This document shows, in pieces, positions 4,582 to 30,238 of a stretch of DNA of 42,281 nt. The position numbers and the translations under genes are program-made. The notes below the pieces were generated by a model. That model was not told the DNA's origin and made no database searches. It saw only the letters and a list, made by a program, of their open reading frames with translations. Origin of the DNA: Promethearchaeota archaeon (lineage in GTDB: Archaea; Asgardarchaeota; Lokiarchaeia; Sigyniarchaeales; SOKP01); assembly GCA_048938025.1 (NCBI GenBank), contig JBHLMP010000032.1:1-42281 (forward strand), in the 5' to 3' direction. Numbering within the stretch: position 1 is the first letter of the stretch; every line of letters starts with the position of its first letter.

Positions 4582-6732
4582 TTAAAATTTTATTAATCCA
4601 GCACCAGTATTAAACAATATAAGAAATCCAAGAAATATAGATGCTGTTAATGACATTACAACTAATAGGGTATTTATACTTGGACCAGCAGTATCCTTAA
4701 AAGGATCACCAACAGTATCACCAGTTATAGATGCTTTATGAACATCAGTTCCCTTTCCTCCAAGATTGCCATCTTCAATCCACTTCTTTGCGTTATCCCA
4801 AGAGCCACCAGCATTTGACATAAAGATTGCGAATACAAATCCGCTTAAGATAGCTCCCGCTAAAAAGGCACCTAAAGCAGCAACTCCAAATAATATTCCA
4901 ACACCAATTGGAATGGCAATAGCTATAATACTTGGAAAAATAAGTTCCTTTAATGCGCCTTTAGTTGCTATAGCAATACATCTATTGAAATCTGCAGCTT
5001 CTTCACCGGTTAATATCTTAGGGTTCTCATCAAATTGCCGTCTAATTTCATCAACCATTTTAGCTGCATTTCTTTGTACTGCGAGAACCAGTAAAGCGGA
5101 ATAGAAAGCAGGCACAACTACTCCTATAAATGCTCCGATTAATACATTTACATTAAGTAAATCCATTGCAGCAATAGTACCTGGTTCAATATCATTTGCT
5201 TCAACTGCAAAGGAGAACATTAGAGCAAGTACAGTGAGATTGGCAGCTCCTATTGCAAAACCCTTAGTAATAGCTTTAGCTGTATTTCCAGCAGAATCTA
5301 ATCTATCAGCAGTTCGGATGACATCATCACCTAAATCTCCTTGTTCCGCAATACCTCGAGCATTATCGACAATAGGCCCATATGCATCATTGGAAACAAT
5401 AGTTCCTACAATAGCTAGCATACCTACAGCTGCCATTGCTACTCCAAAAACTCCTCCAAGAAAGTAAGCTATAGCCATTGCAATAACAATGCCAATAGCA
5501 GGAGGAACAACACTAAGTAAACCATAAGAAAATCCACTAAGAATAACTACGGCATCCCCCTCCTGTGCGGATTCTGCAATAGATCTTGTTGGTTTTCTAT
5601 TATCGCTAGTAAAATAATCACTAGTAAATCCGATAACAAGACCACTAAGCAATCCAACTACAACAGAAGCATAAAGTTTCCATAAGAAAAACATCTCATC
5701 CTTATTCAATTCAGATTCAAATATCATAAATAAGGTAAATAATGCAGCAAGACCTCCAAAAACAATTGTAGCTAAATATGTTCCCAAATTTAATAATTTA
5801 CCAGGTTCTTCGCCTTTCATAATTTTAATTAAGTAAATGCAAATCAGAGAAGCTAATAAGCCAACACCGCTTAGAACAACAGGAAATATTACAAAGGTAT
5901 ATCTAGCAGTCTCAGACATCGGTCCCCATATTTGGGAAAATTCTGGAGCTGCAAAAGATAAAGTCGAAGCTAATAACATAGCCGCCACTATTGATGCTAC
6001 ATATGAATCAAAAAGATCGCTTCCCATTCCAGCTATGTCACCTACATTGTCGCCTACATTATCAGCAATAGTAGCTGGATTACGTGGATCATCTTCTGGA
6101 AGGTTATATTCTGCTTTACCTACTAAATCAGCACCTACATCGGCAGTTTTGGTGTATATTCCACCTCCCGCTTTCATAAAAAGGGCAACACTACTGGCAC
6201 CAAAACTGAACCCTAATACTATCATGGGATCTGGAACTATCCAGTATAAAACTGAAAGACCAATTAGAGCTACTCCAACTACCGCAAGACCCATAACTGC
6301 ACCACCGAAAAAAGCAACATCAAAACCTTTTTTGGTGCTTATTGTACACCCTTGTGCAGAACGGGTGTTGGTTTTTACACCTGTCATCATACCTAAATAG
6401 CCAGCCATCATTGATCCAAATGAACCTATGATATAGGCTATCATTTGCTCCCAATTTAAAGCATCAGGAAATAATCTTGTGTAAGTATCACTTTCTTTTA
6501 AAGGAGATGGGAGAAATAGTAAAGCTATTGCTAAAACAACTACAAATATACCTAATACTTTATATTGAACTTTAAGAAAGGTCTTAGCTCCTTTCTCAAT
6601 GTAGCCAGAGACTTCAATCATTCTTTCATTTCCAGGATCTTCCTTCAAGACTAATCTTGCGAAGTATAATGCCATTCCAATTGAGATTACACCAGCAATT
6701 AAAGCAACAATTAAAATTATTGGTACAGCCAT
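4582..6732 (-). CDS. hppA: Membrane-bound ion-translocating pyrophosphatase, probably K+-independent H+-PPase
   Basis: GGGIYTKTADVGADLVGK, EDDPRNPATIADNVGDNVGD and GDTVGDPFKDTAGPS motifs; many TM segments; Lys in GNTAKA. Confidence 0.93.
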   Translation of the reverse strand: MAVPIILIVALIAGVISIGMALYFARLVLKEDPGNERMIEVSGYIEKGAKTFLKVQYKVLGIFVVVLAIALLFLPSPLKESDTYTRLFPDALNWEQMIAYIIGSFGSMMAGYLGMMTGVKTNTRSAQGCTISTKKGFDVAFFGGAVMGLAVVGVALIGLSVLYWIVPDPMIVLGFSFGASSVALFMKAGGGIYTKTADVGADLVGKAEYNLPEDDPRNPATIADNVGDNVGDIAGMGSDLFDSYVASIVAAMLLASTLSFAAPEFSQIWGPMSETARYTFVIFPVVLSGVGLLASLICIYLIKIMKGEEPGKLLNLGTYLATIVFGGLAALFTLFMIFESELNKDEMFFLWKLYASVVVGLLSGLVIGFTSDYFTSDNRKPTRSIAESAQEGDAVVILSGFSYGLLSVVPPAIGIVIAMAIAYFLGGVFGVAMAAVGMLAIVGTIVSNDAYGPIVDNARGIAEQGDLGDDVIRTADRLDSAGNTAKAITKGFAIGAANLTVLALMFSFAVEANDIEPGTIAAMDLLNVNVLIGAFIGVVVPAFYSALLVLAVQRNAAKMVDEIRRQFDENPKILTGEEAADFNRCIAIATKGALKELIFPSIIAIAIPIGVGILFGVAALGAFLAGAILSGFVFAIFMSNAGGSWDNAKKWIEDGNLGGKGTDVHKASITGDTVGDPFKDTAGPSINTLLVVMSLTASIFLGFLILFNTGAGLIKF

Positions 6733-6855
6733 AATTTTTCACTTTTTTATAAATTTTTTAAATCAATTTTTTTAAAATCAATGACATAATAATATCAAAC
6801 AAAATTTCTTAAATCATTAAAATATTTTGAATTTGGGTGAAATTAATTTTCTTAG

Positions 6856-6965
6856 AAAAAGTAAAACATTATAAAGTGAACTGAATGTTTATTAATCATT
6901 CAAAGTAATTAATATTAGACAATAAGGTCGAGATAACACACAATCAATTATATAATTGATCCTAA
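6856..6965 (+). promoter_or_regulatory. Conserved upstream element, copy 1 (TATA-like TTATAAA, 38-bp core, palindrome before ATG)
   Basis: 6884-6921 is identical to 10855-10892. Perfect 18-bp palindrome ATCAATTATATAATTGAT at 6943-6960. Confidence 0.65.
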
Positions 6966-9900
6966 ATGACTTTAAAGGAAAATATAGATTCCCTACTAAA
7001 CAAAGCACTAGATGAAGAAAGAAATTACAATTGGATTGAAGCAGCAGCGTTATATGAAAAAGTTGCTAAGCACTATTTAGATGAAAATCTAGTTGAAAAA
7101 GCTGCTGATTGTTATAAAAGTCTTGGATATAGTCATGCCCGAGGCGCTGATACGGTAGAAACAGCAGAAGATTATTTAAAACAAATAAATTGTGCTATTA
7201 AGGCTTATAGAGATGCAAGCAAGTTCTATAAAGAACTTAGAAATAAATCTGCAGAGCTTGAATGCGAAGCAGAAATATATTTTACAAGTGGATTTCTTGC
7301 AACTTCCGATAGGGAAGGTCAGAAGGCATATCTTGAAGCAATTAAACTTTTTAGGGAATCAAGTGAGATTTATTCTAAAGAAGGTAATAAAGAGAGTTTT
7401 TCGAGATTACTGTGGCATATAGCTTATGCTTCAAACCTACTTATGTCTTATGATATTAGTCAAGAAGAGTATGATCGGATTGCTCAACAAGGAAGTGAAT
7501 CTGCTAAAAAAGCTTGGGAAATCTCAAAACGAATTGGTAATATTCAAATTCTGTCTGATTCATTGTATATAGAACTTATAATTGGTTTCAATTTCTCATC
7601 AGTCAAAGATTTTAAAAAAAATATTAATATTTCGATTGAGGTTACTAAGGAATTCTTAACAAAATGCAACAACGCTATCACAATTATTGGTGACTTAAAT
7701 GATCCTTGGGCGTACAATCTAATTTACGAAGCAATGGGTGTGTGCTATTGCTATTTTGGATACCAATTCGTTGAAGATGAAAGAGAACAAGAGGAATACC
7801 TAAATAAGGGAATAGAATTATTGGAAAAAGGTTTAAATTTTGCCAGAAAAACGAAGAGTAAAATTAATATACTGTTATGTATGTTTTTCTTAGACTATTT
7901 TGCACTTTATAGTGGGAAAATCAATTATCTCCAAAAGAGAATTCTTAATGACATCAAAGACTGTTTAGAATTAGGAAGGATTTATACACATTCTTATAGT
8001 TTTTATCGTTCTATAGGAAATGTAATACCTGCGCTTTATTATACTAATTCTTCACAGAGGAGTTTCTTTACCACCAAACAACGCAAAATCTATGCTGAAA
8101 AAGGGATACACTATGTAAAGGAAGCGATGAGTGCTCCTATTTTCCCTGATATTTTAGCATGGTTATACCAAGGTTTGATATTAGCATATTCTCAACTTAC
8201 TATTCTTGCTGAATCAAAAACAAAACAAGATGAGTATGCCCATATTATGCTTCAAAATGCAATAAAGGCACAAAAATTTGGTTTAAAATATGAAGCAGGA
8301 TTTCCTCAAGCTGGTGGTTATACCAGTCTTTACAAAGCTTATAAAACTCTTGCAGATATTGCTAAAAAGAAAGAAGACAGGATCACCAACCTCAAAAAGG
8401 CAATAGATGCCCAAAAAAGATCAACTGATTATAGTATATTATCTCGGTCTGGGGCTATTACGGAACAAATGAGGCTGGGTCTATTATATGAGGAATTGGG
8501 AATTATAACAGCGGAAAACACTATTTTAAATCAAGCACGGGATATTTTTCTCCACACAATAAAAGAAAGTATCGATAGAAGATACTTTTCTTATGAAGCA
8601 GCAAGTTATCAATACATAGCTCGTATTGAAGATCGATTGGGCAACTATATGCTTTCTGCAGAAAATTATAAGAAAGCTCAGGAAGCATATAGTAAGTCGC
8701 TAAAAATGATAAAATATAAACTACTAAAAAATCGAATCAATGAGAAATTTAATTATGTAAGGGCTTGGAGTTTTATTGAAGAAGCTAAATCATTTCATAT
8801 CCGAGAAAATCACGTACAATCTAAGGAATATTATAAGAAAGCTTACGATATCCTAATAGAATTACCAAGTTATGGGTACGAGGCATCCTATTATTCTGGA
8901 TGGATATCATTAGAAGAAGCAGAACAACTAAGCAAACAAGAAAAACATGAAGTGGCTATAGAAAGCTTTAAAAAAACAGGTGAGATCTTTAAAAAAGCAA
9001 TTGAAATATTAGTGAAATCCTCTCAGCGATTAAGAGAAAAATTTGAAAAAGAAAGAATAAATAAATTTGAAAAAGTAGCTCAAGTACGGGTGAATCATTG
9101 CAAGGCAAGAATAAATCTTGAGGAAGGGAGGATATTAGGAAAAAAAGGTGAACATATTGCAGCAGCAGAAAAATTTGCACTCGCATCTTCTCTATTCAGA
9201 GATATTTGTATTTTATTTAAAATTAAACGAGAACGAGAGGAATTAGAAGCTGTATATTACTTGTGCAGAGCTTGGGAAAATATGGAACTTGCTGAAAATT
9301 ATGAAGATCCTTACCGCTTTTCCGAAGCAGCAAAATTATTTGTTAAAGCCAGTGATCTTTTTACAGATGCTAAATTAAAGTTATTAGCGTCCGGAAATTC
9401 AGCTTTTTGTCAAGCACTTGAATATGGTTGTAAATTTGATGAAAATATTGATATGAACGTTAAAAAAGAATTATACCCAAAAGTCAAGTTAACGCTTAGT
9501 AAAGCCGCTAATTTGTATGAAAAAGGAGGTTTTGAAAGTGGGGCTACCTGGGCTCAAGCAACTTCTATTTATTTTGACGCGGCATGGCACTTAATTAGTG
9601 CCGATGAAGAAACTAGTCTTCAAGAAAAAGGAAAACTATTAGGTATAGGTGCAAGATATCTAAAATCTGCAGTTGAATTATTTGGAAAAGCGGGATATAA
9701 AGAAAAGGAGAAAGAAGTTCAAGATAGGTTGAATAGAGTTGAGAAAGAAGAATCAATTCTTTTTTCTGCTTTAAGCACTATAAAAGAACCCTCAATTTCC
9801 CGAAGCACTATGGGAATATATGCTCCTTCTTGTCCACTTGAGAGTAGTCAATCTCCTAGATTAAGTGAAGCTCGTCAGTTCAGTGATGAAGAAAAACGTG

Positions 9901-10802
9901 TAATGTTTGAAAGGATGGATAGAAAGAAATATCAATTAGTCTACAGAGATCTGATTAAAGAATATGCAATAATTCAGAAAAAGAAGTGTAGAGTTGGTAT
10001 TGCTCAAATAGGAGTATCTGAAACTGGAGACATAATGGAAGAACTATTTGATAAGAACCCTTCAGGACTTCTAACTATAAAGGAGAATAAAATTAAAGAA
10101 ATAATATCTAAAGTTAGAAATATGACTGAAAAGGCACATAAGGAGGGAGTTAATATTTTACTCTTTCCTGAGATGTCTATTGACCTCAATGTTAGTGATT
10201 TATTTAAAGAAATATCAGATATGGCCAAATTGTACAATATGTATATCATTCCTGGAGCATTTCATGATCAAGAAACACATCGTAATATTAGCATGGTTTT
10301 TGGACCAGAAGGAATCGTTTGGGAACAAGAAAAACATATTCCTGCAATTATTAGTTTTGGAAAAGAAAATCGTTTTAAAGAAGGAATAGATGTTAGTAGT
10401 TTACCAAGGAAAACAATCATTTGTAATACAGAGTATGGTAGAATAGCAATTGTTATCTGTCGAGACTTTCTTGACATGGACTTAAGAGTAGAGTTAAAAA
10501 ATTTTGAGCCTCCGATTGATATAATTTTGAACCCTGCTTTTACGCCAGTCACAGCAGATTTTAAAGCTGCACATTTTGATGCACGTCGATCCATTTATGC
10601 TTACTCCTTTTTTGCGAATATTGGCGAATATGGAGAGTCCCTAATCTATACACCGGAAAAAGATAGAACTAAAAGAATTATACCCACAAAAGAAGAAGGG
10701 CTTATTTATAAAGATATAGATCTCTTTAAGCTACGTTCTGAACGTAAAAAGTGGGAAAAGGAACAGGAAAAAGAACGCTTATTTATTCAAAGCACAAGAT
10801 AA
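6966..10802 (+). CDS. Large TPR-like alpha-solenoid protein with C-terminal carbon-nitrogen hydrolase (nitrilase family) domain, paralog 1
   Basis: About 950 aa of helical repeats rich in A/Y/L/E/K (AxxxYxxA patterns). The C-terminus has VGIAQ, LLFPEM (E), QEKHIP (K) and ICRDF (C). Confidence 0.8.
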   Translation: MTLKENIDSLLNKALDEERNYNWIEAAALYEKVAKHYLDENLVEKAADCYKSLGYSHARGADTVETAEDYLKQINCAIKAYRDASKFYKELRNKSAELECEAEIYFTSGFLATSDREGQKAYLEAIKLFRESSEIYSKEGNKESFSRLLWHIAYASNLLMSYDISQEEYDRIAQQGSESAKKAWEISKRIGNIQILSDSLYIELIIGFNFSSVKDFKKNINISIEVTKEFLTKCNNAITIIGDLNDPWAYNLIYEAMGVCYCYFGYQFVEDEREQEEYLNKGIELLEKGLNFARKTKSKINILLCMFFLDYFALYSGKINYLQKRILNDIKDCLELGRIYTHSYSFYRSIGNVIPALYYTNSSQRSFFTTKQRKIYAEKGIHYVKEAMSAPIFPDILAWLYQGLILAYSQLTILAESKTKQDEYAHIMLQNAIKAQKFGLKYEAGFPQAGGYTSLYKAYKTLADIAKKKEDRITNLKKAIDAQKRSTDYSILSRSGAITEQMRLGLLYEELGIITAENTILNQARDIFLHTIKESIDRRYFSYEAASYQYIARIEDRLGNYMLSAENYKKAQEAYSKSLKMIKYKLLKNRINEKFNYVRAWSFIEEAKSFHIRENHVQSKEYYKKAYDILIELPSYGYEASYYSGWISLEEAEQLSKQEKHEVAIESFKKTGEIFKKAIEILVKSSQRLREKFEKERINKFEKVAQVRVNHCKARINLEEGRILGKKGEHIAAAEKFALASSLFRDICILFKIKREREELEAVYYLCRAWENMELAENYEDPYRFSEAAKLFVKASDLFTDAKLKLLASGNSAFCQALEYGCKFDENIDMNVKKELYPKVKLTLSKAANLYEKGGFESGATWAQATSIYFDAAWHLISADEETSLQEKGKLLGIGARYLKSAVELFGKAGYKEKEKEVQDRLNRVEKEESILFSALSTIKEPSISRSTMGIYAPSCPLESSQSPRLSEARQFSDEEKRVMFERMDRKKYQLVYRDLIKEYAIIQKKKCRVGIAQIGVSETGDIMEELFDKNPSGLLTIKENKIKEIISKVRNMTEKAHKEGVNILLFPEMSIDLNVSDLFKEISDMAKLYNMYIIPGAFHDQETHRNISMVFGPEGIVWEQEKHIPAIISFGKENRFKEGIDVSSLPRKTIICNTEYGRIAIVICRDFLDMDLRVELKNFEPPIDIILNPAFTPVTADFKAAHFDARRSIYAYSFFANIGEYGESLIYTPEKDRTKRIIPTKEEGLIYKDIDLFKLRSERKKWEKEQEKERLFIQSTR

Positions 10803-10826
10803 TATTTTCTTTTAACGCTTTTTCAT

Positions 10827-10938
10827 AAAAAGTGAAATGTTATAAATTCAACTAAATGTTTATTAATCATTCAAAGTAATTAATATTAGACAGTTAAGGT
10901 CGAAATAGAACATAAAGCAATTCTTTAATTGATCCTAT
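10827..10938 (+). promoter_or_regulatory. Conserved upstream element, copy 2
   Basis: Colinear with 6856-6965: TTATAAA, identical 38-bp core, TAAGGTCGA, CAATT-N4-AATTG and GATCCTA before the ATG. Confidence 0.65.
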
Positions 10939-13900
10939 ATGACTTTAGAAGAAAGTGAAGAGGATTTATTAGAAAAGGCTCGAGAAGAAGAATTAAATTA
11001 CAATTTCTTGAATGCAGCAAAGCTCTATTATCAAGCAGCAAAATCATATAGTGATAAAAAGAAGGTGGTTAAAGCAAGGGAAATTATTCATGATTTGATT
11101 ATATATTATGGGTATTTGGAGAGTTCGGTCAAAACAGCAGAAGAATATTTGGAATTGATAAATAATTATGTTATACTCTTTGAAGAAGCAGTAATACTTT
11201 GTAAAAAGAATAGATTTGAACTTGAAAAATTGGAATTAGAAGTGATTTCGACCTTTTATAAATGTTCCATAGCAGATTCTATTGAAGAAGCAGAGAGAAT
11301 GGCTAAAAAAGCTTTAGAGCTAAGTTCTAACTTGCTTGAGACATATTCAAAAAACAAAGATAAGCAGGTTCCTCCTAGGATTGTAAACGAGTTAAGAATG
11401 ATTAAGCTGTTCGCATTGTTTAATTATGTAGATTTATGCAATGAGCCAGTAGAATTAAAGGAAAATGTAAAAAAAATCATTGAATTAAGTGGAGAAATTT
11501 GGAAAATTTCAATGGAAAGCAAAAATATGTACGATATTGTATTTTCTTTATACATTGAGTGTGTTTTTATACAAATACTAACTCATATGGAAGATTTTAA
11601 AGGGAAGAAACAATCGATAGAAGCTTTTAAAAATGTTATTTATAAGTGTGAAGAAAGTATTAAGTTTCTTAAACCATATAATAATCCCTTAATTCTTGCC
11701 ATTTTATACCATACCTATGGCTTTATAAACTCTGAGTATGGATATAAACATATCAATGATGAAATAGAGCAGAGAAATTATTTTGATAAAGGAATAAACT
11801 ATCTTGAGATGAGCTTAGATTTAGCAAGAAAAGTTAAAAATAAAATTTTTATTGTTTGGAATCTCTATTTGATAAATGAATATGCCTTTATTAGCGGTAA
11901 ATTTATGTATCTACAAAAAAGAATTATAAACGACATTAAGGAAATTAGGGACGCAGGAATTGTTTTCGCTAAATCAAAGGTCCCTTTATTGCAATCGACC
12001 TCTTTTTATACGAGCTATTTACCAGCGTTCTATTATTCCAATGTTGCTCAATTAAGCTTTTTTACTCCAAATCAAAGAAAATCATATGCAGAAAAAGGGG
12101 TTGAATATGCATTGAGAACTTTAGATTGTATTGTAAGTGATATATTAAAATCATTCTCATTTTTGTCTCTCACCATTAGCTATGCTGTGTTGGCTCGTTT
12201 TGCTGAAGCAAAAGAAGAGCGAGATATAAACATTAAACACATGTTCCATTATGCAAATAAGATTAAAAAGGTAGGTGAAAAATATGGAGGAGGGCAAACT
12301 CAAGCCTTTGCATACAATTCGCTAAATAGAGCTTATAAAACCTTAGCTGATGTTACAGAAAAAAAAGAGCAAAAAATTGAAATGTTGTTAGCTGCAGCTG
12401 ATGCATCTAAAAATTATCTAAAGCATGCTTCAGAGTCTCGTTCAGGTGTTATAGCTGCTCAAATGCGGTTAGCCTTTCTCTATGAAGAGATAGGCATCTT
12501 AACTAAAAATAATGATAGATTGTTGGAGGCAAAAGAGTTATTGCTCGATGCTATTAAAGGAAGTCTTGAGAAAGGTTATTATTCTTACGGAGGTACAACA
12601 TATGAATACATCGCACGCATAGAGGATCGTCTCGGTAACCACACTTCTTCTGCTGAGAATTATATGAAAGCTGAAAAAAATCATTCAAAATCATTGGAAA
12701 GTATTGAATATAGGCCGCTTAGAGAAAGAGTTAGGGAGAAGATACAATATGCTAATGCTTGGAATCTAATTGAAAAGGCTAAGGCATATCATAAAAATGA
12801 AGACCACTTGAAAGCAAAAAAGTATTACGAAGATGCTAGTGAAATCTTGAAAAAAGTTCCTAAATATAATTTTGAGGGATTTTATAATGCGGCTTGGGCA
12901 ATGTTAGAGGAAGCAGAATCATTAAGTAAGCAGGAAAAACGAGAGGAAGCTATAAATCAATATAGAAATACAATAAGAGCTTTCGAAGAAGCCATGCAAA
13001 TTCTAAAGGAAGCTTCAGTAAAAACTACAGAGCAACCAGAAAAGGAACGTATAGAAAAACTTGAGAAAGTAGCAATAGTAAGGATCGATTATTGCTCTGC
13101 TAGGATAAATCTTGAAGAAGCAATAATATTAGGTAAAAAGGGAGAACATTCCACAGCCGCAGAAAAATTCGGGATCGCTGCTTCTGAATTTAGAGGTGTT
13201 TGCACACGATTTAAGTTAGAGAAAGAAAGAAAGGAACTTGAAGCTATTTATTATCTATGTCGAGCGTGGGAAGGTATGGAACTAGCAGAGAAATTTGAAG
13301 AACCAGAGAGATTTGATTATGCTTCAAATTTATTTGGAAAGGCTAGTAATCTTTTTGCTGATACCAAATTAAAGTTATTAGCTTCAGGTAATTCAGCATT
13401 TTGTCAAGCTCTTGGATTAAGTTGTAAATTTGATGAATCAATGGAGATTAATACGAAAATGGATTTATATCCAAAAGTTAAGTTGATGCTAAGTAAAGCA
13501 GCCTCTGCTTATGGTAAAAGTGGATTTGAGAATTTAGCAAATTGGGCTTTAGCTTCCTCAATTTATTTTGATGCTGCTTGGCACTTAATCCAAGCTGATA
13601 AAGAACTAGATATTACTGAAAAAGGAAGGTTATTAGGTATTGGATCGAATTATTTAAAGTCATCTTTAGAATTGTTTAGCAAAGCGGGTTATAAGAATAA
13701 AGCTGTTGAGGTTCAAGACAGATTAAACAGAGTAGAGAAGGAAGAGTCCATTCTTTTTTCTGCTTTAAGTACTATAAAAGAACCGTCAATCTCTCGAAGT
13801 ACAGTTGGTATAGTCGCTCCTTCTTGTCCTATTGAAAGTAGTCAATCTCCTAGATTAGGGGAAGCCCGTCAGTTCACTGAAGAAGAACTTCGAGTTACGA

Positions 13901-14793
13901 TGGAGAGAGAACGTAAAAAATATGAACTTATCTATAAAGATTTGGTTAAAGTATATCCGAAAGTTCAAAAAAGAGAATGTAGAGTTGGTATTGCTCAAAT
14001 AGGAGTTTCTAAGACTGGCAACATTATGAATGAACTTTATGAAATGAAAGCTTCAGGTATTTTAAATCTCAAAGAAGATAAGATTAATAGTGTAAGATTT
14101 AGTGTTAAAAAAATGATTGAAAGAGCACATAACGAGGGAATCAATATCCTTCTATTCCCAGAAATGACAATTGACCTTAATTATGGGCAATGGTTAGAAG
14201 AAATAGCCGATTTAGCCAAATTATACAAAATGTACATAATACCAGGTTCCTTTCATAATCAAGAAACAAAAAGGAACATTTGCATGGTTTTCGGACCCGA
14301 AGGGATTCTCTGGGAACAAGAAAAACATATCCCTGCAATGATTAGTTTTGGAAAAGAAAATCGTTTTAAAGAAGGAATAGATGTTAGTAATTTACCAAGG
14401 AAAACTATTATTTGTAATACTGAATATGGTAGAATTACTATTGCGATTTGTCGAGACTTTCTTGACATGGATTTAAGGGTAGAGTTAAAAAATTTCGAAC
14501 CACCAATTGATATAATTCTAAATCCCGCATTTACACCAGTCACAGCTGATTTTAAAGCAGCTCATTTTGACGCACGTAGGTCTATATATGCATATTGTTT
14601 TTTTGCTAATGTTGGTGAATTTGGAGAATCTCAAATTTATACCCCAGAAAAGGATCGAACGGAGCGAATTGTACCAGCAAAAGAAGAAGGTTTGATTTTC
14701 AAAGATATTGATTTATTCAAGCTACGTTCAGAACGTAAAAAATGGGAGAAAGAGCAAAAAAAAGAACGCTTATTTATTCAAAGCACCAGATGA
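10939..14793 (+). CDS. Large TPR-like alpha-solenoid protein with C-terminal nitrilase-family domain, paralog 2
   Basis: Colinear with 6966-10802 and has the same E-K-C motifs. The last ~163 aa differ at only 14 positions by manual count. Confidence 0.8.
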   Translation: MTLEESEEDLLEKAREEELNYNFLNAAKLYYQAAKSYSDKKKVVKAREIIHDLIIYYGYLESSVKTAEEYLELINNYVILFEEAVILCKKNRFELEKLELEVISTFYKCSIADSIEEAERMAKKALELSSNLLETYSKNKDKQVPPRIVNELRMIKLFALFNYVDLCNEPVELKENVKKIIELSGEIWKISMESKNMYDIVFSLYIECVFIQILTHMEDFKGKKQSIEAFKNVIYKCEESIKFLKPYNNPLILAILYHTYGFINSEYGYKHINDEIEQRNYFDKGINYLEMSLDLARKVKNKIFIVWNLYLINEYAFISGKFMYLQKRIINDIKEIRDAGIVFAKSKVPLLQSTSFYTSYLPAFYYSNVAQLSFFTPNQRKSYAEKGVEYALRTLDCIVSDILKSFSFLSLTISYAVLARFAEAKEERDINIKHMFHYANKIKKVGEKYGGGQTQAFAYNSLNRAYKTLADVTEKKEQKIEMLLAAADASKNYLKHASESRSGVIAAQMRLAFLYEEIGILTKNNDRLLEAKELLLDAIKGSLEKGYYSYGGTTYEYIARIEDRLGNHTSSAENYMKAEKNHSKSLESIEYRPLRERVREKIQYANAWNLIEKAKAYHKNEDHLKAKKYYEDASEILKKVPKYNFEGFYNAAWAMLEEAESLSKQEKREEAINQYRNTIRAFEEAMQILKEASVKTTEQPEKERIEKLEKVAIVRIDYCSARINLEEAIILGKKGEHSTAAEKFGIAASEFRGVCTRFKLEKERKELEAIYYLCRAWEGMELAEKFEEPERFDYASNLFGKASNLFADTKLKLLASGNSAFCQALGLSCKFDESMEINTKMDLYPKVKLMLSKAASAYGKSGFENLANWALASSIYFDAAWHLIQADKELDITEKGRLLGIGSNYLKSSLELFSKAGYKNKAVEVQDRLNRVEKEESILFSALSTIKEPSISRSTVGIVAPSCPIESSQSPRLGEARQFTEEELRVTMERERKKYELIYKDLVKVYPKVQKRECRVGIAQIGVSKTGNIMNELYEMKASGILNLKEDKINSVRFSVKKMIERAHNEGINILLFPEMTIDLNYGQWLEEIADLAKLYKMYIIPGSFHNQETKRNICMVFGPEGILWEQEKHIPAMISFGKENRFKEGIDVSNLPRKTIICNTEYGRITIAICRDFLDMDLRVELKNFEPPIDIILNPAFTPVTADFKAAHFDARRSIYAYCFFANVGEFGESQIYTPEKDRTERIVPAKEEGLIFKDIDLFKLRSERKKWEKEQKKERLFIQSTR

Positions 14794-14941
14794 TAACTTT
14801 TTCTTAAATTTTTTATTTGGTATTAAAATCATAATAGCTTTTTTGATTATTAATAGATAATTTCAAAAGATTATAAAGCTAAATCACTTTTAATCAATTA
14901 TTCAAGAAAATATATATAATAGAGTATAGGTTTGATTATTT

Positions 14942-15865
14942 TTGAGCTTAGAAATTTATCAGATAATTATTCTTATTTCTATTGGGGCACTTGTAGGAAC
15001 TTCCATGAGCTTTATTGGACAAACCGGACAAGGTGTCGTGGTACCTCTGATTTTGATCTTTTCAGGAGATGTATTTTTAGCTATAGCAATAAGTGTTTTA
15101 AATGATTTAATAGCGGCAATTGCTGTGGGCATTAATTATACCAGAAAAAAGCAATTTTATTTCCGTCGGGATATATTAATTTTAATACTAATTGCGGTTA
15201 TTACCGCTTTTCTTGGAGTTTTTATATTAATGATGACTCCTTTAGGTACTGTTTTTGGTTGGGCGATTCCTATATTTATTATTTTTTTAGGATTAGCTAT
15301 TCTTAGAAAGGGTTTTCCTACATCCGAATCACTTCAGAGAACAGTAAATAATATTATTAAGAGGTTTTCAAGGAATAAATCGAATGAAATTAATAATAAA
15401 GAAAGTCAAAACAATTTTAAGGAACCAAATTCTGTTCATAATGAAGAAATACAAGGATTTATTAAACCATATTCGAGATTATTTTATATTTTAGCAATTA
15501 TACTTGGAATTTTTGTAGGTATAAATTCAGGAATGTTTGGTGCTAGTTCAGGGTTCATCATAACATTAGTTTTAATCATCCTTTATGGTTATCCGATAAA
15601 AAAATCTGTAGGAACGGCCTTATTGTTAAGTATTTTCATGTGTTTCTTTACATTTTCAATATACCAAATCTTAGGTTTCACTATTAAAGGTCAATTCTAT
15701 TATAATTGGGAGTTTACTCTCTATCTTGGAATTGGTTCATTAATAACAGGATTTATTGTATCTAATTACGTGCAAAAATTATCTGCTAAAGCAATGGGAA
15801 GGGGAATGGGTGCAACAATGATTTTTTTAGGTACAATATCTTTAATCTTCTATTTCCTTATGTAA
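14942..15865 (+). CDS. TauE/SafE (TSUP) family membrane transporter
   Basis: Two hydrophobic halves with G-x-G-x-x-G motifs (FIGQTGQGVVVP, SGMFGASSG) and KKSVGTAL; TTG start. Confidence 0.75.
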   Translation: MSLEIYQIIILISIGALVGTSMSFIGQTGQGVVVPLILIFSGDVFLAIAISVLNDLIAAIAVGINYTRKKQFYFRRDILILILIAVITAFLGVFILMMTPLGTVFGWAIPIFIIFLGLAILRKGFPTSESLQRTVNNIIKRFSRNKSNEINNKESQNNFKEPNSVHNEEIQGFIKPYSRLFYILAIILGIFVGINSGMFGASSGFIITLVLIILYGYPIKKSVGTALLLSIFMCFFTFSIYQILGFTIKGQFYYNWEFTLYLGIGSLITGFIVSNYVQKLSAKAMGRGMGATMIFLGTISLIFYFLM

Positions 15866-16905: not shown

Positions 16906-18027
16906 GTGAAAACAATCACAACTCAAATTAAAAAGGAAGAAGAAATTTCTCTCAAGGATCAAATGAAAAAATTTCTGATAAAAGGTTTTTATGGATTTAA
17001 TACAATCATTTCTTGTGGTTTAGGAAAGCAACTTGGGATTTTTGATTATCTTGATGAAAAAGCAAAGAAATTATCTGAATCTAGCTCAATTAATTCAATA
17101 TCATTTACTCCAGAAGAACTTACTGAAGAACTTAATTTAGATGCGGATTACTTAGATGCTTGGATTCATTTAGCACTTGAATGTGGTATCTTTGAAATTA
17201 ACAATGCAGAACTAAAAATTTTGAAGACTGCACCTCATGTGTACGATTTACTTATTAATCGTAACCATATGTTCTATGTTGGAGATACAGTAAGTCTATA
17301 CTATTACTTTGCTCCATTTCAGGCAATTGTAATAGATTCTTTCAAAACTGGAAAGTCTGTTAACATCGATGAAATACCAGAAGATTTTGTAATGGATGGA
17401 CATAGAATGAGTGCAAGGTTTGGAGTTTTACTTGAGGGATTATTTTCAAAGAGTTTTAAGGATTTTTGTCGAATCCTACGAAAACAAGGCAAGATTCTTG
17501 AAGTTGGATGTGGTTATGGATTTAATCTAAAGAAATGGGCAGAGAAATATAAAAGAGCGCAATTTGTTGGAATAGATATTGATTCTAGGGCAACAGCATT
17601 TGCCAAAAATTTAATAGAACAACAGAATTGGAATGATAGAATTGAAGTTTTCGATATTTCGATTAATGAATATGCAAAAAAAAGCAAGGATAAATATGAT
17701 TTAATATTATTAAACCAAGTTCTCCATGAAATGGACCATGATGAAGAATATAGAAGAAGCGTTTTCAAGGATTTATATTCTTTATTGAAGGATGATGGGT
17801 TTTTACTTGTTGGAGAATCTATGATTCCTGATACTTTTTCTTCACAAAAAGAATTCCAACTTTTTAATATTATGCATAAATTTCTTGAAGTAAAATTTGC
17901 AAAATTCTATAATGAAAAAAGTTTTAAAGAATTTATTGAATCAACGCCATTTAAACAAGCTGAGTTTGTAAAAGAAAGGGGAACCTCTTTCTGGGCGATA
18001 AAAAAAGAAAAAGGAAGCCTAAATTAA
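16906..18027 (+). CDS. Class I SAM-dependent methyltransferase with N-terminal winged-helix-like region
   Basis: GKQLGIFDYL...TPEELTEEL...YLDAW, ILEVGCGYG, FVGIDID and VLHEM motifs. Start is uncertain. Confidence 0.8.
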   Translation: MKTITTQIKKEEEISLKDQMKKFLIKGFYGFNTIISCGLGKQLGIFDYLDEKAKKLSESSSINSISFTPEELTEELNLDADYLDAWIHLALECGIFEINNAELKILKTAPHVYDLLINRNHMFYVGDTVSLYYYFAPFQAIVIDSFKTGKSVNIDEIPEDFVMDGHRMSARFGVLLEGLFSKSFKDFCRILRKQGKILEVGCGYGFNLKKWAEKYKRAQFVGIDIDSRATAFAKNLIEQQNWNDRIEVFDISINEYAKKSKDKYDLILLNQVLHEMDHDEEYRRSVFKDLYSLLKDDGFLLVGESMIPDTFSSQKEFQLFNIMHKFLEVKFAKFYNEKSFKEFIESTPFKQAEFVKERGTSFWAIKKEKGSLN

Positions 18028-27588: not shown

Positions 27589-27726
27589 ATTGTCTCACTT
27601 AAACTATGGAGCAAATATTAACTAATAATTTAATAAACCAACTTTTAAAATAAAAGTTTTCTTATCTTTTTTTTATATAAAATCTCTATTCTCAATATAA
27701 TAAAAACTTTGGAGATATGTTTTCAT

Positions 27727-28644
27727 ATGAAAAGAATTTATAAAATAGTCATATGGATGTCAGTTATAGGACTTTTTGTATTAATTTATTTTTATTTTGG
27801 CTTTAAGCAATTATTATTGAACCTAATACTTTTAAATTTGGCTGCTTTTGTAGTCAGATCAATATTAAATGATATATTTCATAGTTTGATTAAAAATTTG
27901 CTCATTCGTTATATAGCCATGATAATACTAAACATTATATGGTTAATATTTCCATTTTGGTTGATTTTCATTATTTCACCGATTTTATTTGTAGCAATTA
28001 TATCATTTTTAGTGGTGGCAATATCTTTAACATTTCAAAATATTATTAATAACATTGCAGCAGGAATATTACTCTTATCATCAGAAGGTTTTGAAGCAGG
28101 TGATTTGATTGAAACAAATGGAATTGAAGGTATTGTTAAAGAAGTAACATTAACTAGTTTGAAACTACAAGATTTTGACGGCTCTATCACTTACATTCCC
28201 AACAGAAACGCTTTTAACTCATCAGTAGTTCGCTTTACTCACAAACCTATTGAAAAAGAAAAGAAAATAGTCATTTCGGAAGTAGTAAAAAAATTCGGTA
28301 AATTAATAACTGGAGAAAAAAAAATTACACGTTATATTAAAGTAGTTGAACTTTTAGGTACAGTAGATCCAGAAAATCTTGAAGAATTATTAGTCCCCAT
28401 ATTTGATAAGTATGAACCCATTTTTGGAAGAAGACCATTTTTCTATGCAAATAGTACAGTCAGTGGGATCATTAATCGATTAAGTATTACCATACAAATT
28501 ATCACAGAGAATCCAAAATTAATTTTAACTTATATGGATCCCCTATTGAAAGATATTCTATTTAAAATTTATGAACCAGATATAAATTATGGATGGAACT
28601 CTTCTAATACAAATAATTCAAAAAATAATTTAGAGGTTGATTAA
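27727..28644 (+). CDS. MscS-family mechanosensitive channel
   Basis: TM helices followed by QNIINNIAAGI, FEAGDLIE, GIVKEV and YIPN. ATG at 27727 is preferred over the TTG at 27709. Confidence 0.8.
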   Translation: MKRIYKIVIWMSVIGLFVLIYFYFGFKQLLLNLILLNLAAFVVRSILNDIFHSLIKNLLIRYIAMIILNIIWLIFPFWLIFIISPILFVAIISFLVVAISLTFQNIINNIAAGILLLSSEGFEAGDLIETNGIEGIVKEVTLTSLKLQDFDGSITYIPNRNAFNSSVVRFTHKPIEKEKKIVISEVVKKFGKLITGEKKITRYIKVVELLGTVDPENLEELLVPIFDKYEPIFGRRPFFYANSTVSGIINRLSITIQIITENPKLILTYMDPLLKDILFKIYEPDINYGWNSSNTNNSKNNLEVD

Positions 28645-28646
28645 AA

Positions 28647-29555
28647 ATGGCAATATTTAGTTCAGATTTAGAAGCATTAATATATCTTTTAATTATTATG
28701 GCTGGTTTCTATCTAATAAATAAGTTGTATTCTTCAACATTAGGGAAAAGTAAAAAAATACCGTTGAAGCAAAAAACTATTTTAAATTTTGTTATTAAAA
28801 TTATTTCAGTAGTTACAATAATATTTTTTGTCATTGGAGGGTTTCCTTCAATGACAAAGAAAGAAAACCTAGCATACACGGCAGCACTTACTGGAGCAAT
28901 TAGCACTGCGATTGCATTTGCATCTAGCGGTATATTCGCAAATTTTATTTCAGGGATTGTTATGATGTTAGTAAGACCTTTTGAAGCTGAAGATTTGGTT
29001 AAAATTGAAGGGGATAAAGGAATTGTACGTGAAATTAATTTAACAAAAACGAAATTAGAAACATTTGATAATATTATAATTGAAAAATCTAATAGTCAAA
29101 TTCTTTCTTCAAAAATCGTTAATTACACAATTAAACTTGGCAAAAAGAAGTCTTTTGAAGATTTCAAAAGCAAAATCTTAGCCCCCCAAGATATTGGTTT
29201 TAAAGATATTTATGAAGATATTTCGAATTCTAAAAATGAATTTGAAGATAATTTAAAAAAAGCATACGAATCCTTTTCGACTAAGTACTATCCAAAGTTA
29301 TACAACTATACGTTTAGAATGGCTTTTCCTTATAAAGGATTTCGATTAATCATTAATAAAGTGGCTGAACTATGTGATTTATACAATCAAAAGAATATTT
29401 TTCGAATAAAACCTCAATTTGATATAGTAAATTATAATATAAGTATTATAGTTAAATTTCGGTTATTGACATTTACTCCTCAGAGAATTTTTGATTTTCA
29501 ACCTAAATTTGCAAAAGAGGTTTACGATATAATTTATAAATACAAGGCTATGTAA
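28647..29555 (+). CDS. MscS-family mechanosensitive channel
   Basis: AIAFASSGIFANFISGI, RPFEAEDLVKI, GIVREINL and IVNYT motifs. Confidence 0.82.
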   Translation: MAIFSSDLEALIYLLIIMAGFYLINKLYSSTLGKSKKIPLKQKTILNFVIKIISVVTIIFFVIGGFPSMTKKENLAYTAALTGAISTAIAFASSGIFANFISGIVMMLVRPFEAEDLVKIEGDKGIVREINLTKTKLETFDNIIIEKSNSQILSSKIVNYTIKLGKKKSFEDFKSKILAPQDIGFKDIYEDISNSKNEFEDNLKKAYESFSTKYYPKLYNYTFRMAFPYKGFRLIINKVAELCDLYNQKNIFRIKPQFDIVNYNISIIVKFRLLTFTPQRIFDFQPKFAKEVYDIIYKYKAM

Positions 29556-29769: not shown

Positions 29770-29884
29770 GTGAATCCTTATCTTAACTAATTATAATCTC
29801 AAAACTTTTAATACTTAAATATATTAAATCTAACATATAATTATAGAATTAATTATCTTAATATAATAAAATAAATTGAGTTCG

Positions 29885-30238
29885 ATGAGTGATCAAATAT
29901 CAAATATTTTAGATTCTCTTAAAGCTATAAAAGGAGTTCATGGAGCTGCTATTATAGAGAAATTTGGATTGATTAAAGGCAGTGCTTTACCGGGATGGGT
30001 AGATCCAGAAGCCGTGGCTGCAATGGTCACGCTTATCCTAAAAGCAAGTCAACGTGCTACGAAAGAATTAGAACAAGGATCCTTTAACAGTGCAATAATA
30101 GAATCTGAGAAGGGTAAAATACTTTTTAGTGAAATTAAAGGAAATATTCTTACAATAATTGCGACTGTCGATGCAAAATTAGGTATAATTAATTTAAAAT
30201 TAGCTGCTGCTGCTGAGAAACTAAGCAGTTTAATTTAG
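29885..30238 (+). CDS. Roadblock/LC7 domain protein
   Basis: IKGVHGAAII..FGLIKGSALP, AVAAM, ELEQG...IIESEKGKI and DAKLGII motifs. Alternative TTG start at 29876. Confidence 0.88.
   Translation: MSDQISNILDSLKAIKGVHGAAIIEKFGLIKGSALPGWVDPEAVAAMVTLILKASQRATKELEQGSFNSAIIESEKGKILFSEIKGNILTIIATVDAKLGIINLKLAAAAEKLSSLI

Follow-up and report, generated by a model that had tools for sequence, protein, structure and literature searches.

Tandem genes for predicted solenoid–nitrilase proteins in a Promethearchaeota archaeon and their modular archaeal family with exchangeable C-terminal heads

We consider here a stretch of DNA of 42,281 nucleotides from a Promethearchaeota archaeon (the whole stretch is called the window in what follows), which is contig JBHLMP010000032.1 (labelled C27), one of the 88 contigs of a 3.52-Mb assembly (GCA_048938025.1, labelled G000), and in which two adjacent genes, termed gene A and gene B, each encode a very large protein composed of a predicted N-terminal alpha-solenoid, a short linker and a C-terminal module of the nitrilase superfamily (Table 1). 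The G+C content is about 29% both in the window (2-kb profile) and genome-wide. The two proteins can be aligned end to end by BLASTP, with 716 of 1290 positions identical (56%, E = 0), and the conservation rises along the chain: the identity is 33.6% in residues 1-400, 56.2% in residues 401-930, 81.5% in the linker (931-984) and 78.6% in residues 985-1278, with 149 of the last 163 residues identical (91.4%). A and B are thus colinear paralogs, their likeness being far beyond chance, as had been noticed in a first-pass annotation made from the DNA letters, whose manual count for the C-terminal part agrees with ours. Since the synonymous sites between A and B are saturated (proportion of synonymous differences, pS, 0.53-0.89), the duplication is old; the same saturation makes the A-B comparison uninformative about positive selection. 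The orthologs of A are 66-83% identical to it among the matches listed, and B has orthologs of its own with identities of 87%, 81% and 72%.

It is noted that neither protein has an NTPase family in the Pfam scan. No Walker-A pattern is present in A, and the one loose match in B (AASAYGKS at 854) lies within a solenoid helix, is absent from A and is unconserved, being a chance match. Neither a signal peptide nor a transmembrane segment is found in A or B by the Kyte-Doolittle scale, where the maximal 19-residue mean is 1.45 for A and 1.55 for B and the N-termini are hydrophilic. The first-pass annotation had likewise seen no NTPase, signal peptide or transmembrane segment.

Table 1. Positions of the features of genes A and B and of the copies of the shared upstream motif (window coordinates unless a contig is given)
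Feature	Position	Strand	Remarks
Gene A	6966..10802	+	1278 aa: solenoid, linker and nitrilase module; translates without stops
A solenoid, residues 1-930	6966..9755	+	TPR/SNAP-like alpha-superhelix, 37 helices (predicted with AlphaFold2)
A linker, residues 931-984	9756..9917	+	Pro/Ser-rich (LFSALSTIKEPSISRSTMGIYAPSCPLESSQSPRLSEARQF...), conserved, low-confidence prediction; tail-swap point
A nitrilase-superfamily (C-N hydrolase) module, residues 985-1278	9918..10799	+	Pfam, PADLOC, AlphaFold2
A catalytic codons	E1069 10170-10172; K1123 10332-10334; C1165 10458-10460	+	triad motifs
Gene B	10939..14793	+	1284 aa, built like A; translates without stops
B solenoid	10939-13749	+	counterpart of that of A
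B linker	13750-13908	+	counterpart of that of A
B nitrilase module	13909-14790	+	counterpart of that of A
B catalytic codons	E1075 at 14161; K1129 at 14323; C1171 at 14449	+	triad motifs
Upstream element of gene A	6876..6965	+	motif TGTTTATTAATCAT at 6886-6899, 80 nt before the ATG
Upstream element of gene B	10850..10937	+	same motif at 10857-10870, 82 nt before the ATG
Copies of TGTWTATTAATCAT outside the window	C12:41912; C33:113042; C51:11349		own genome

The C-terminal modules of A and B belong to the nitrilase superfamily, on the evidence of the fold, the catalytic triad and the Pfam cut-off. With the Pfam model CN_hydrolase (PF00795), A scores 25.4 bits and B 24.2 bits, barely above the cut-off of 23.2 (E 1e-5), and variant proteins of the own genome score 33.4 and 32.1 bits. 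The AlphaFold2 model of the module has a mean predicted local distance difference test score (pLDDT) of 76.3 and a predicted template-modelling score (pTM) of 0.78. In searches of a Protein Data Bank (PDB) fold library that ran to April 2026, it matches Nit2 by Foldseek at E 1.7e-14 and mouse Nit2 by VIA at Z 23.3, with a root-mean-square deviation (rmsd) of 3.6 Å over 239 residues; 214 chains reach Z >= 8 by VIA, the other branches of the superfamily having Z of about 21. All three methods (AlphaFold2, Foldseek and VIA) thus give the alpha-beta-beta-alpha sandwich that defines the superfamily. The motifs that the first-pass annotation had read as an intact Glu-Lys-Cys triad are found in both proteins (in A/B: LLFPEM at 1065/1071, QEKHIP at 1121/1127 and ICRDF at 1164/1170), and the triad residues do not vary in any of the 50 modules aligned. 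Also invariant in the alignment of 50 sequences are a glutamate, E1139 of A, which may be a fourth catalytic residue as judged from its conservation, and the extreme C-terminal IQST (50/50; ...FIQSTR in A). The sequence is remote from those of the solved nitrilases, with a best E of 1.6e-4. No meaningful family is given by NCBIfam, where the match to Lnt (E 0.0036) is far under the cut-off of that model. In the ESM Atlas the nitrilase part comes closest to clusters of hypothetical proteins from bacteria, about 300-350 residues long (cosine 0.95-0.96), taken as leads only.

The first-pass annotation had pointed out that nitrilase domains occur in reverse-transcriptase (RT) defence systems, and a link of this kind is seen with the PADLOC models, where RTasNitrilase matches A at E 1e-16 and B at E 6.4e-13 and is the sole model listed for the two proteins at E <= 0.01. 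Related modules match RT_UG5-nitrilase (E 7e-13 to 2e-13) and Drt1a (E 1e-5), and protein P0137, which has the same nitrilase module, matches CARF_m7--CARF_nitrilase at E 2.6e-14. Over the family members the values for RTasNitrilase, RT_UG5-nitrilase, Drt1a and CARF_nitrilase range from E 1e-5 to 1e-16, versus just 1e-5 to 1e-8 for the generic CN_hydrolase model. The PADLOC matches span only the nitrilase part of the models, and these are the only nitrilase models seen matched in the library, the specificity of the match being only partly established. By sequence, then, the modules of A and B resemble a divergent nitrilase of the type associated with defence and in particular with the defence-associated reverse transcriptases (DRT). 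A specific kinship with the solved DRT1 structure (9yfd) was considered and set aside: the match by sequence is weak (E 0.21 with a single sequence and 0.055 with a profile) and Nit2 scores better, though this entry may be absent from the PDB fold library.

The N-terminal part of about 930 residues is, as modelled, a TPR-like (tetratricopeptide-repeat-like) alpha-solenoid, as the first-pass annotation had read it. With a 96-row alignment, AlphaFold2 predicts residues 1-975 of A as 37 helices and 0 strands, with a mean pLDDT of 91.6 and a pTM of 0.86, where the helices of the solenoid are paired in hairpins of about 50 residues per pair. The best PDB matches by Foldseek are TPR scaffolds, namely Ctr9, Ski3, IFT-A subunits, separase and TTC7 (E 7e-10 to 1e-4; for Ctr9, Ski3 and IFT-A 7e-10 to 1e-8 at TM 0.18-0.35), with subunits of the APC/C and a CRL2 substrate receptor among the further ones. 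The template-modelling (TM) scores against the scaffolds are just 0.14-0.37 and the rmsd is above 15 Å; such low TM scores despite good E values imply that the likeness is to TPR superhelices in general. The Pfam scores stay under the cut-offs, being 19.7 bits for A and 29.9 bits for B with TPR_12 (cut-off 30.1) and 18.4 bits with SNAP (cut-off 25), and every ESM Atlas score with the solenoid as query is <= 0.84, again leads only. The linker that follows is Ser/Thr-Pro-rich and is predicted as disordered, with pLDDT of 41-68, though few parts of the proteins are as well conserved throughout the family: P942, P954 and E959 are conserved to at least 90% across 96 solenoid relatives, including those only 20-25% identical. 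Such a linker could be a hinge, a site of phosphorylation or cleavage, or a pseudo-ligand for the groove of the solenoid.

The relatives of A and B show that the head, rather than the solenoid, is the exchangeable part. A word-indexed protein search gave 725 homologs at E <= 0.001, of which 120 were listed; among the matches listed, nearly all are 1260-1298 residues long and the named source organisms are all Asgard archaea (Promethearchaeota/Loki, Thor, Hermod, Hod and Odin). An exhaustive HMMER search with the solenoid alone gave 542 cluster representatives (clustering at 50%) at E <= 1e-3, 279 of them at <= 1e-30. The solenoid of protein P0033 has 77% identity to A across 76% of A's length, and this protein ends in a TIR_2 domain (E 4.7e-14); protein P0034 is 75% identical to A and ends in an alpha/beta roadblock-like domain of about 150 residues. 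The solenoid of A is only 48% identical to that of B, versus the 77% with the TIR-tailed protein. Both the TIR-tailed and the roadblock-like-tailed variants part from A directly after the linker (...SPRL.EA.Q).

Among the 149 representatives listed, there are 114 in which the sequence runs through to the solenoid's end and continues into a tail of 40 residues or more. The prevalent tail is a beta-sandwich with weak likeness to DUF11 (70 of 114), alone or with about 100 added residues that look, by eye from the sequence and with no Pfam match, like a DNA-binding winged helix; in 12 further cases the beta-sandwich is joined to a KaiC-like ATPase. The nitrilase tail makes up 7 of the 114 (6 clustered and one cut short), the TIR tail 6 (5, and 1 with an extra insert), an alpha/beta domain of about 140-155 residues without Pfam family 10 (two clusters, of 6 and 4), the Zn-ribbon 3, the calcineurin-like phosphoesterase (Metallophos) 2, an AAA ATPase 2, an adenylate/guanylate cyclase 1 and DUF835 1. 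Some distant solenoid relatives have N-terminal additions of helix-turn-helix (HTH) type.

The exchange of heads is also seen on a FastTree tree of residues 1-930 with 37 hand-chosen rows, for which the tool warns of possible long-branch joins among the distant rows. On this tree the TIR, roadblock-like, Zn-ribbon and metallophosphoesterase tails are scattered among the nitrilase tails: one sister pair consists of a nitrilase-tailed paralog of the own genome and a TIR-tailed protein (support 100), and another of a phosphoesterase variant and a nitrilase one (99); the clade of A includes TIR and roadblock-like variants (98-100), and a roadblock-like variant is sister to the clade of B (100). 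The well-supported branches force at least four tail changes for TIR, at least three for the roadblock-like domain and at least two for the Zn-ribbon. The nitrilase module is itself portable, being found also in proteins of up to 701 residues (435 matches, many ended by contig ends), where it follows Pkinase, Arf/Ras-type GTPase, SR-beta-like GTPase and MalT-type TPR N-termini. The effector is thus not fixed, in disagreement with the first-pass annotation, which had coupled a variable sensor to a fixed effector. A and B are members of a large family of modular single-chain proteins in archaea, which has expanded in some Asgard lineages. A remote relative of the solenoid, P0290, lies in a contig (MTLR01000202.1) of a Bathyarchaeota metagenome-assembled genome (MAG), with 30% identity to A over the matched stretches, the best-matching stretch being residues 469-956 of the query, and with a tail of the beta-sandwich and about 100 winged-helix-looking residues (no Pfam match). 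The presence of P0290 in this MAG implies that the solenoid is not confined to the Asgard archaea, and its carrying the commonest class of tail suggests that the solenoid began as a regulatory platform outside them.

The number of copies varies strongly. The own genome has six full-length solenoid-nitrilase genes, mutually 47-56% identical, and six variant or truncated ones, namely two solenoid-Zn-ribbon genes (one ended by a contig end), two further copies cut by contig ends, and two genes in which the nitrilase module follows other N-termini (871 and 825 residues), which in the 825-residue protein are classical TPR repeats. A match at E <= 1e-10 is present in 17 of 31 related genomes; these include 16 of 18 congeners, the two without a match being 95% and 97% complete, and no match is present in the 12 genomes of families f2-f4 of the same order. 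Within the one genus (19 genomes, namely the 18 congeners and the own genome) a genome has anything from 0 to 15 matches, and the longest tandem array, in G016, has five genes. In the 31-genome table the full-length solenoid matches number 42, of which 34 have frames of 1274-1298 residues and 8 of 1067-1127 residues, at least one of the latter being ended by a contig end. Three full-length matches in other genomes contain a single in-frame stop each (G018:C2:27801-30692, TGA; G006:C1:1551725-1554625, TAA; G300:C10:23728-26838, TAA) and may be pseudogenes or sequencing errors. A profile search over 301 genomes of the phylum gave matches in 96, the strong ones mainly in families f1 (41 of 68), f11 (9 of 76) and f26 (8 of 21); because two candidates per genome were scored, this search says nothing on copy number.

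Two of the variants in the own genome deserve description. The 871-residue chimera (C13, L010:6103-8718, +) joins a roadblock-like domain and a P-loop small GTPase (GEDGVGKTT) to the final third of the solenoid and a nitrilase. Homology to the C-terminal tail of P0034 is seen in its N-terminal domain (46% over 41 residues, E 1e-8), and its gene adjoins genes for a Ras-family GTPase (L010:5406-5966) and for a leucine-rich-repeat (LRR) protein (L010:2229-3491). In two tandem genes on contig C82 (L009:11506-14721, -, and L009:14857-16860, -) a coiled coil and a Cys-rich Zn-ribbon (C-x2-C...C-x2-C...C-x2-C) replace the nitrilase, and the pair is adjoined by a gene for a 296-residue protein with a MazE/AbrB-like domain.

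The N-terminal third of the solenoid is the fastest-evolving part of the proteins. In 29 A-orthologs the identity per 100 residues is 62, 62, 57, 72, 79, 86, 77, 87, 83, 84, 65, 86 and 88%, so the fastest parts are the N-terminal 300-400 residues or so and residues 1001-1100, which hold the last part of the linker and the first part of the module. In comparisons of paralogs the nitrilase module is 78-90% identical where the N-termini are 22-38% identical. Computed against an ortholog with unsaturated synonymous divergence (dS 0.36-0.65), omega, the ratio of nonsynonymous to synonymous rates, is 0.33, 0.36, 0.41 and 0.32 in the first four windows of 100 residues and 0.19, 0.07, 0.17 and 0.09 in the next four (residues to 796), one locus (L017) being left out. 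As judged from these rates, the N-terminus is under relaxed constraint, or under a mixture of constraint and adaptation. Of the variable, diversifying sensor of the first-pass annotation, the variability of the N-terminal third thus stands, while diversifying selection finds no support, with omega of 0.33-0.41 there.

A further property common to A and B is the DNA in front of them. The stretches of roughly 110 nt that precede A and B share about 88-90% identity, though the synonymous sites of the coding parts are saturated, and they contain the motif TGTTTATTAATCAT, the region of which is the probable TATA/BRE (B recognition element) region. The 14-nt core TGTWTATTAATCAT occurs five times in the 3.52-Mb genome versus about 1.2 times expected from composition, and each of the five copies precedes a nitrilase-module gene by 71-82 nt (A, B, the genes on C12 and C33, and the TPR-nitrilase gene on C51). 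The copies on C6 and C82 have a different upstream sequence, which is common to the two. In five congeneric genomes the motif is found 7 times, 6 of them upstream of solenoid/TPR family genes: five are 60-80 nt upstream of solenoid genes, one is before a gene for a 629-residue MalT-type TPR protein and one is unassociated; the reversed control gives 0. We read the element as a probable promoter or operator specific to the family, whose genes would then be co-regulated. A regulatory RNA in the 5' leaders was considered and rejected: the fold z-scores are -0.59 and -0.54, and Rfam gives none in 6700-11000 at E <= 1. With no support from RNA folding or Rfam, the conserved upstream stretch is more likely an element acting at the level of DNA. 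Just before the ATG of A there is a perfect 18-nt palindrome, ATCAATTATATAATTGAT (6943-6960), which overlaps a possible ribosome-binding site, TGATCC; B keeps the arms of the palindrome (CAATT...AATTG) and differs in its centre. Judging by the T-rich stretches after the stop codon of A, the two genes would be transcribed separately. A bacterial-type scan of 6700-15000, which is uninformative for an archaeon, gave 43 promoter-like sites (38.2 +/- 4.7 in shuffled sequence) and 2 terminator-like ones (3.3 in shuffled sequence).

The other genes of the window are of housekeeping type. Pfam scans were made for 32 open reading frames (ORFs) of the window, 36 neighbours of the paralogs in the own genome and 38 neighbours of the arrays in two genomes. 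Those of the window include a H+-pyrophosphatase, TauE, a nitronate monooxygenase-like protein, methyltransferases, enoyl-CoA hydratase, acyl-CoA dehydrogenase, CorA, MscS, GatA/B, AspRS, an F420 ligase and gyrase A/B. At 15 kb downstream of A and B there is a stand-alone Roadblock/LC7 gene (29876-30235, +; Pfam E 2.5e-11), adjoined by two tandem genes for MscS-like channels (27709-29552). The neighbours of the other copies in the own genome have none in common, save the TauE gene beside the copy on C6. A block comprising TauE, Methyltransf_12, Methyltransf_11, ACT, ACAD, ETF and Pyr_redox adjoins the arrays in the congeners G016 and G006 (L037-L040) and also precedes the C6 copy (L012), and gene B is followed by part of it (TauE, Methyltransf_12 and ACAD; window 14942-15865 and 16906-18027). 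The shared block may reflect synteny or a segmental duplication, and its recurrence beside the arrays implies that these occupy a syntenic spot of the chromosome, where no integrases, transposases or known defence genes are seen. Contigs C6 and C82 are probably contiguous at their ends, which would make a single array of about five genes, as in G016. The sole neighbours that look conflict-like are the MazE/AbrB-like protein between the C82 copies and a protein of metallo-beta-lactamase fold (PADLOC E 1e-4 or weaker).

From the data above we propose the following model. The solenoid would be the sensing or regulatory part, whose fast-evolving N-terminal third would bind a protein or peptide ligand. 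The binding of the ligand, or the release of the conserved linker, would alter the association of the molecules, so that the nitrilase heads form the dimer or tetramer that the superfamily needs for activity. The active enzyme would then cleave a C-N bond of an essential metabolite or protein, and the output would be growth arrest (or a signal) as a defence against viruses or other mobile elements. The paralogs would give different specificities of recognition, with the shared promoter element co-regulating them. In short, an NTPase-less, ligand-gated solenoid would control a nitrilase effector that depends on oligomerisation, probably in biological conflict, a model that we hold tentatively, putting its chance slightly short of even.

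Three things speak for the conflict reading: the heads are of certain kinds (TIR, phosphoesterase and the nitrilase of DRT/CARF type), they have been exchanged repeatedly, and the repertoire is patchy and forms arrays. The first-pass annotation had named homologs that are single-copy, uniformly conserved and always in one metabolic context as speaking against a sensor-effector system; this is mostly not what is found, with the caveat that the arrays sit at one syntenic, metabolic-looking spot. Several observations weigh against the conflict reading: the context is housekeeping and syntenic, the paralogs are old and conserved, omega stays under 1 and partner domains of signalling type are many. 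The context of a defence island or mobile element, for which the first-pass annotation had proposed to look, is absent from the flanks of A and B, from six other loci of the own genome and from the arrays in two genomes, the flanks being housekeeping or metabolic; and the arrays occupy that metabolic-looking spot. No relatives were found on plasmids by tblastn, nor in viral contigs with the whole proteins and the nitrilase alignment as queries. Omega is below 1 in every window of 100 residues, which gives no support for positive selection, and A and B are ancient, each with conserved orthologs, which fits stable cellular functions as well. The partner domains are often of signalling type (kinase, small GTPase, roadblock-like, KaiC, cyclase and DUF835) rather than typical toxins, and seven of seven proteins in which the solenoid is joined to TIR, Metallophos, Zn-ribbon or beta-sandwich have no PADLOC hit at E <= 0.001. 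Moreover, the substrate, the ligand and the oligomeric control in the model are all inferred.

Some of these same observations would be expected of a non-immune signalling system, which is the main rival and which we regard as unlikely but deserving serious weight. Here the solenoid would be a scaffold or receiver working with small GTPases, roadblock/longin-like partners and kinases, and the nitrilase would make or destroy a small-molecule signal or modify a protein. This would account for the fusions of the nitrilase module to Pkinase and to Arf/Ras and SR-beta-like GTPases, for the 871-residue chimera with its roadblock-like domain, GTPase, solenoid third and nitrilase beside the genes for a Ras-family GTPase and an LRR protein, for the KaiC-like, AAA, cyclase and DUF835 tails and occasional HTH-type additions of distant solenoid relatives, and for the housekeeping, syntenic flanks and omega below 1; the common promoter motif, too, suggests a regulon. 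But TIR, calcineurin-like phosphoesterase and DRT/CARF-type nitrilase tails typify conflict systems, the copy number is strongly variable, with several near-complete genomes of the same genus having no copy, and effectors have been exchanged repeatedly on one solenoid lineage, all of which speaks against this rival.

The nitrilase superfamily includes N-terminal amidases, and by analogy with these A and B could be amidases or adaptors of proteostasis, with the solenoid binding client proteins, the nitrilase head deamidating them or cleaving their amide, and the other tails being alternative protein-modifying heads. TPR superhelices usually bind peptides or proteins, and the best structural matches of the solenoid are scaffolds of protein complexes; the linker is conserved and Ser/Thr-Pro-rich, and the Zn-ribbon tails have weak C1_4/IBR/RING-like matches in Pfam (E 0.014 to 6.9). 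None of these last matches is significant, however, and the module has no specific likeness to a protein amidase, all nitrilase branches being alike at Z of about 21-23, while the TIR and phosphoesterase tails and the patchy distribution would be left unexplained, which makes this explanation quite improbable. Least probable of all, by a little, is an ordinary metabolic amidase or nitrilase with a big structural domain for localisation or stability and with paralogs differing in their small-molecule substrates, which would fit the database names ('predicted amidohydrolase' or 'carbon-nitrogen hydrolase family protein'), the metabolic neighbour genes and the strongly conserved catalytic centre, but not the facts that the nitrilase module is the most conserved part, the opposite of substrate diversification, that the same solenoid also bears non-hydrolase heads, that there is no fixed operon, with neighbours varying by locus apart from the TauE/methyltransferase spot, and that several near-complete congeners are without the family.

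Returning to the ligand-gated solenoid in biological conflict, a bolder extension of it can be envisaged, which we regard as possible though rather doubtful: the family would be an NTPase-less innate-immune receptor family of the Asgard archaea, with regulatory cousins in Bathyarchaeia, where the N-terminal third of the solenoid recognises proteins of invaders and fires interchangeable suicide or signalling heads (the DRT-type nitrilase, TIR, the phosphoesterase or the Zn-ribbon), and where the arrays are a repertoire of specificities under a shared promoter-level regulon. If this is true, the closest archaeal relatives of eukaryotes have SARM1/NLR-like sensors of solenoid plus TIR or enzyme without an ATPase. 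If A, B and their relatives are ligand-gated switches at all, they make up a large family of them (725 homologs, 542 representatives, up to 15 matches per genome), and the family suggests a simple rule for sensing by a single protein without an NTPase. The TIR, phosphoesterase and nitrilase heads on near-identical solenoids form a natural series for studying how a solenoid controls an enzyme, and the family-specific promoter motif gives a handle on the regulator and the inducing condition. The occurrence of the family in Asgard archaea means that it bears on the question which repeat-plus-effector designs of immunity or signalling predate eukaryotes.

It was stated in the first-pass annotation that the architecture was not recognised as a described system; in the full text searched, which excludes subscription journals and supplementary tables, no solenoid-nitrilase or solenoid-TIR family is described in Asgard archaea, and the databases label the members just 'predicted amidohydrolase / TPR repeat protein'. 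In a survey of Asgard defence systems (PMC11291487), the terms nitrilase, TPR, tetratricopeptide and DRT have 0 occurrences.

Among known systems, the eukaryotic giant TPR scaffolds (Ctr9, Ski3, IFT-A and TTC7) are the best structural matches of the solenoid, with Foldseek E of 7e-10 to 2e-5, but they are without an enzyme head, and the TM scores are 0.18-0.37 with rmsd above 15 Å. The CARF-nitrilase ancillary effectors of type III CRISPR are like the present family in that a sensor is fused to a nitrilase output, as the match of P0137 illustrates, while A and B have neither a CARF domain nor a CRISPR context. Avs/STAND (NLR-like) receptors have TPR sensor arms and exchangeable effectors such as TIR and hydrolases. 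They share with the present family the long TPR-like arm, the swappable effectors and the multi-copy, patchy, single-gene occurrence. By contrast, A and B lack the STAND NTPase and its P-loop, have the effector C-terminal to the repeats and match no PADLOC Avs model; having no NTPase, they are not STAND/Avs receptors. In the way they would work, A and B come nearest to proteins that combine a repeat sensor and an effector in a single chain. In SARM1 an alpha-solenoid auto-inhibits an enzymatic TIR head until a ligand binds. By analogy, the present family too would combine an NTPase-less solenoid with an enzyme head that depends on assembly, and TIR-tailed members of it exist; unlike SARM1, to which there is no sequence relation or specific structural one, A and B have no SAM oligomerisation domain, and control by a ligand is here proposed by us.

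Finally, we turn to the comparison with the DRT systems. In DRT1 the nitrilase is the effector and requires assembly into a tetramer, where conserved C-terminal residues of the neighbouring subunit close the active site, the substrate being given as unknown (PMC13275509); in DRT11 the catalytic domains of the RT and of the nitrilase are both needed for a defence resembling abortive infection (PMC13436386). A and B have no RT family in the genes themselves or among the 20 neighbouring ORFs scanned with Pfam, and so they are not members of the DRT systems; their regulator is instead a solenoid of about 930 residues, and no defence phenotype is known for them. On the other side, DRT1, UG5 (DRT11) and the RT-associated nitrilases have, like A and B, a C-terminal nitrilase head of the same divergent type on a very large polypeptide with alpha-helical repeats (PMC13275509), and DRT1 has in common with A and B the conserved extreme C-terminus, the intact catalytic centre and a substrate that is unknown. 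The present family thus offers a second, RT-independent setting in which to ask what a nitrilase of the defence type hydrolyses, a question left open in PMC13275509.

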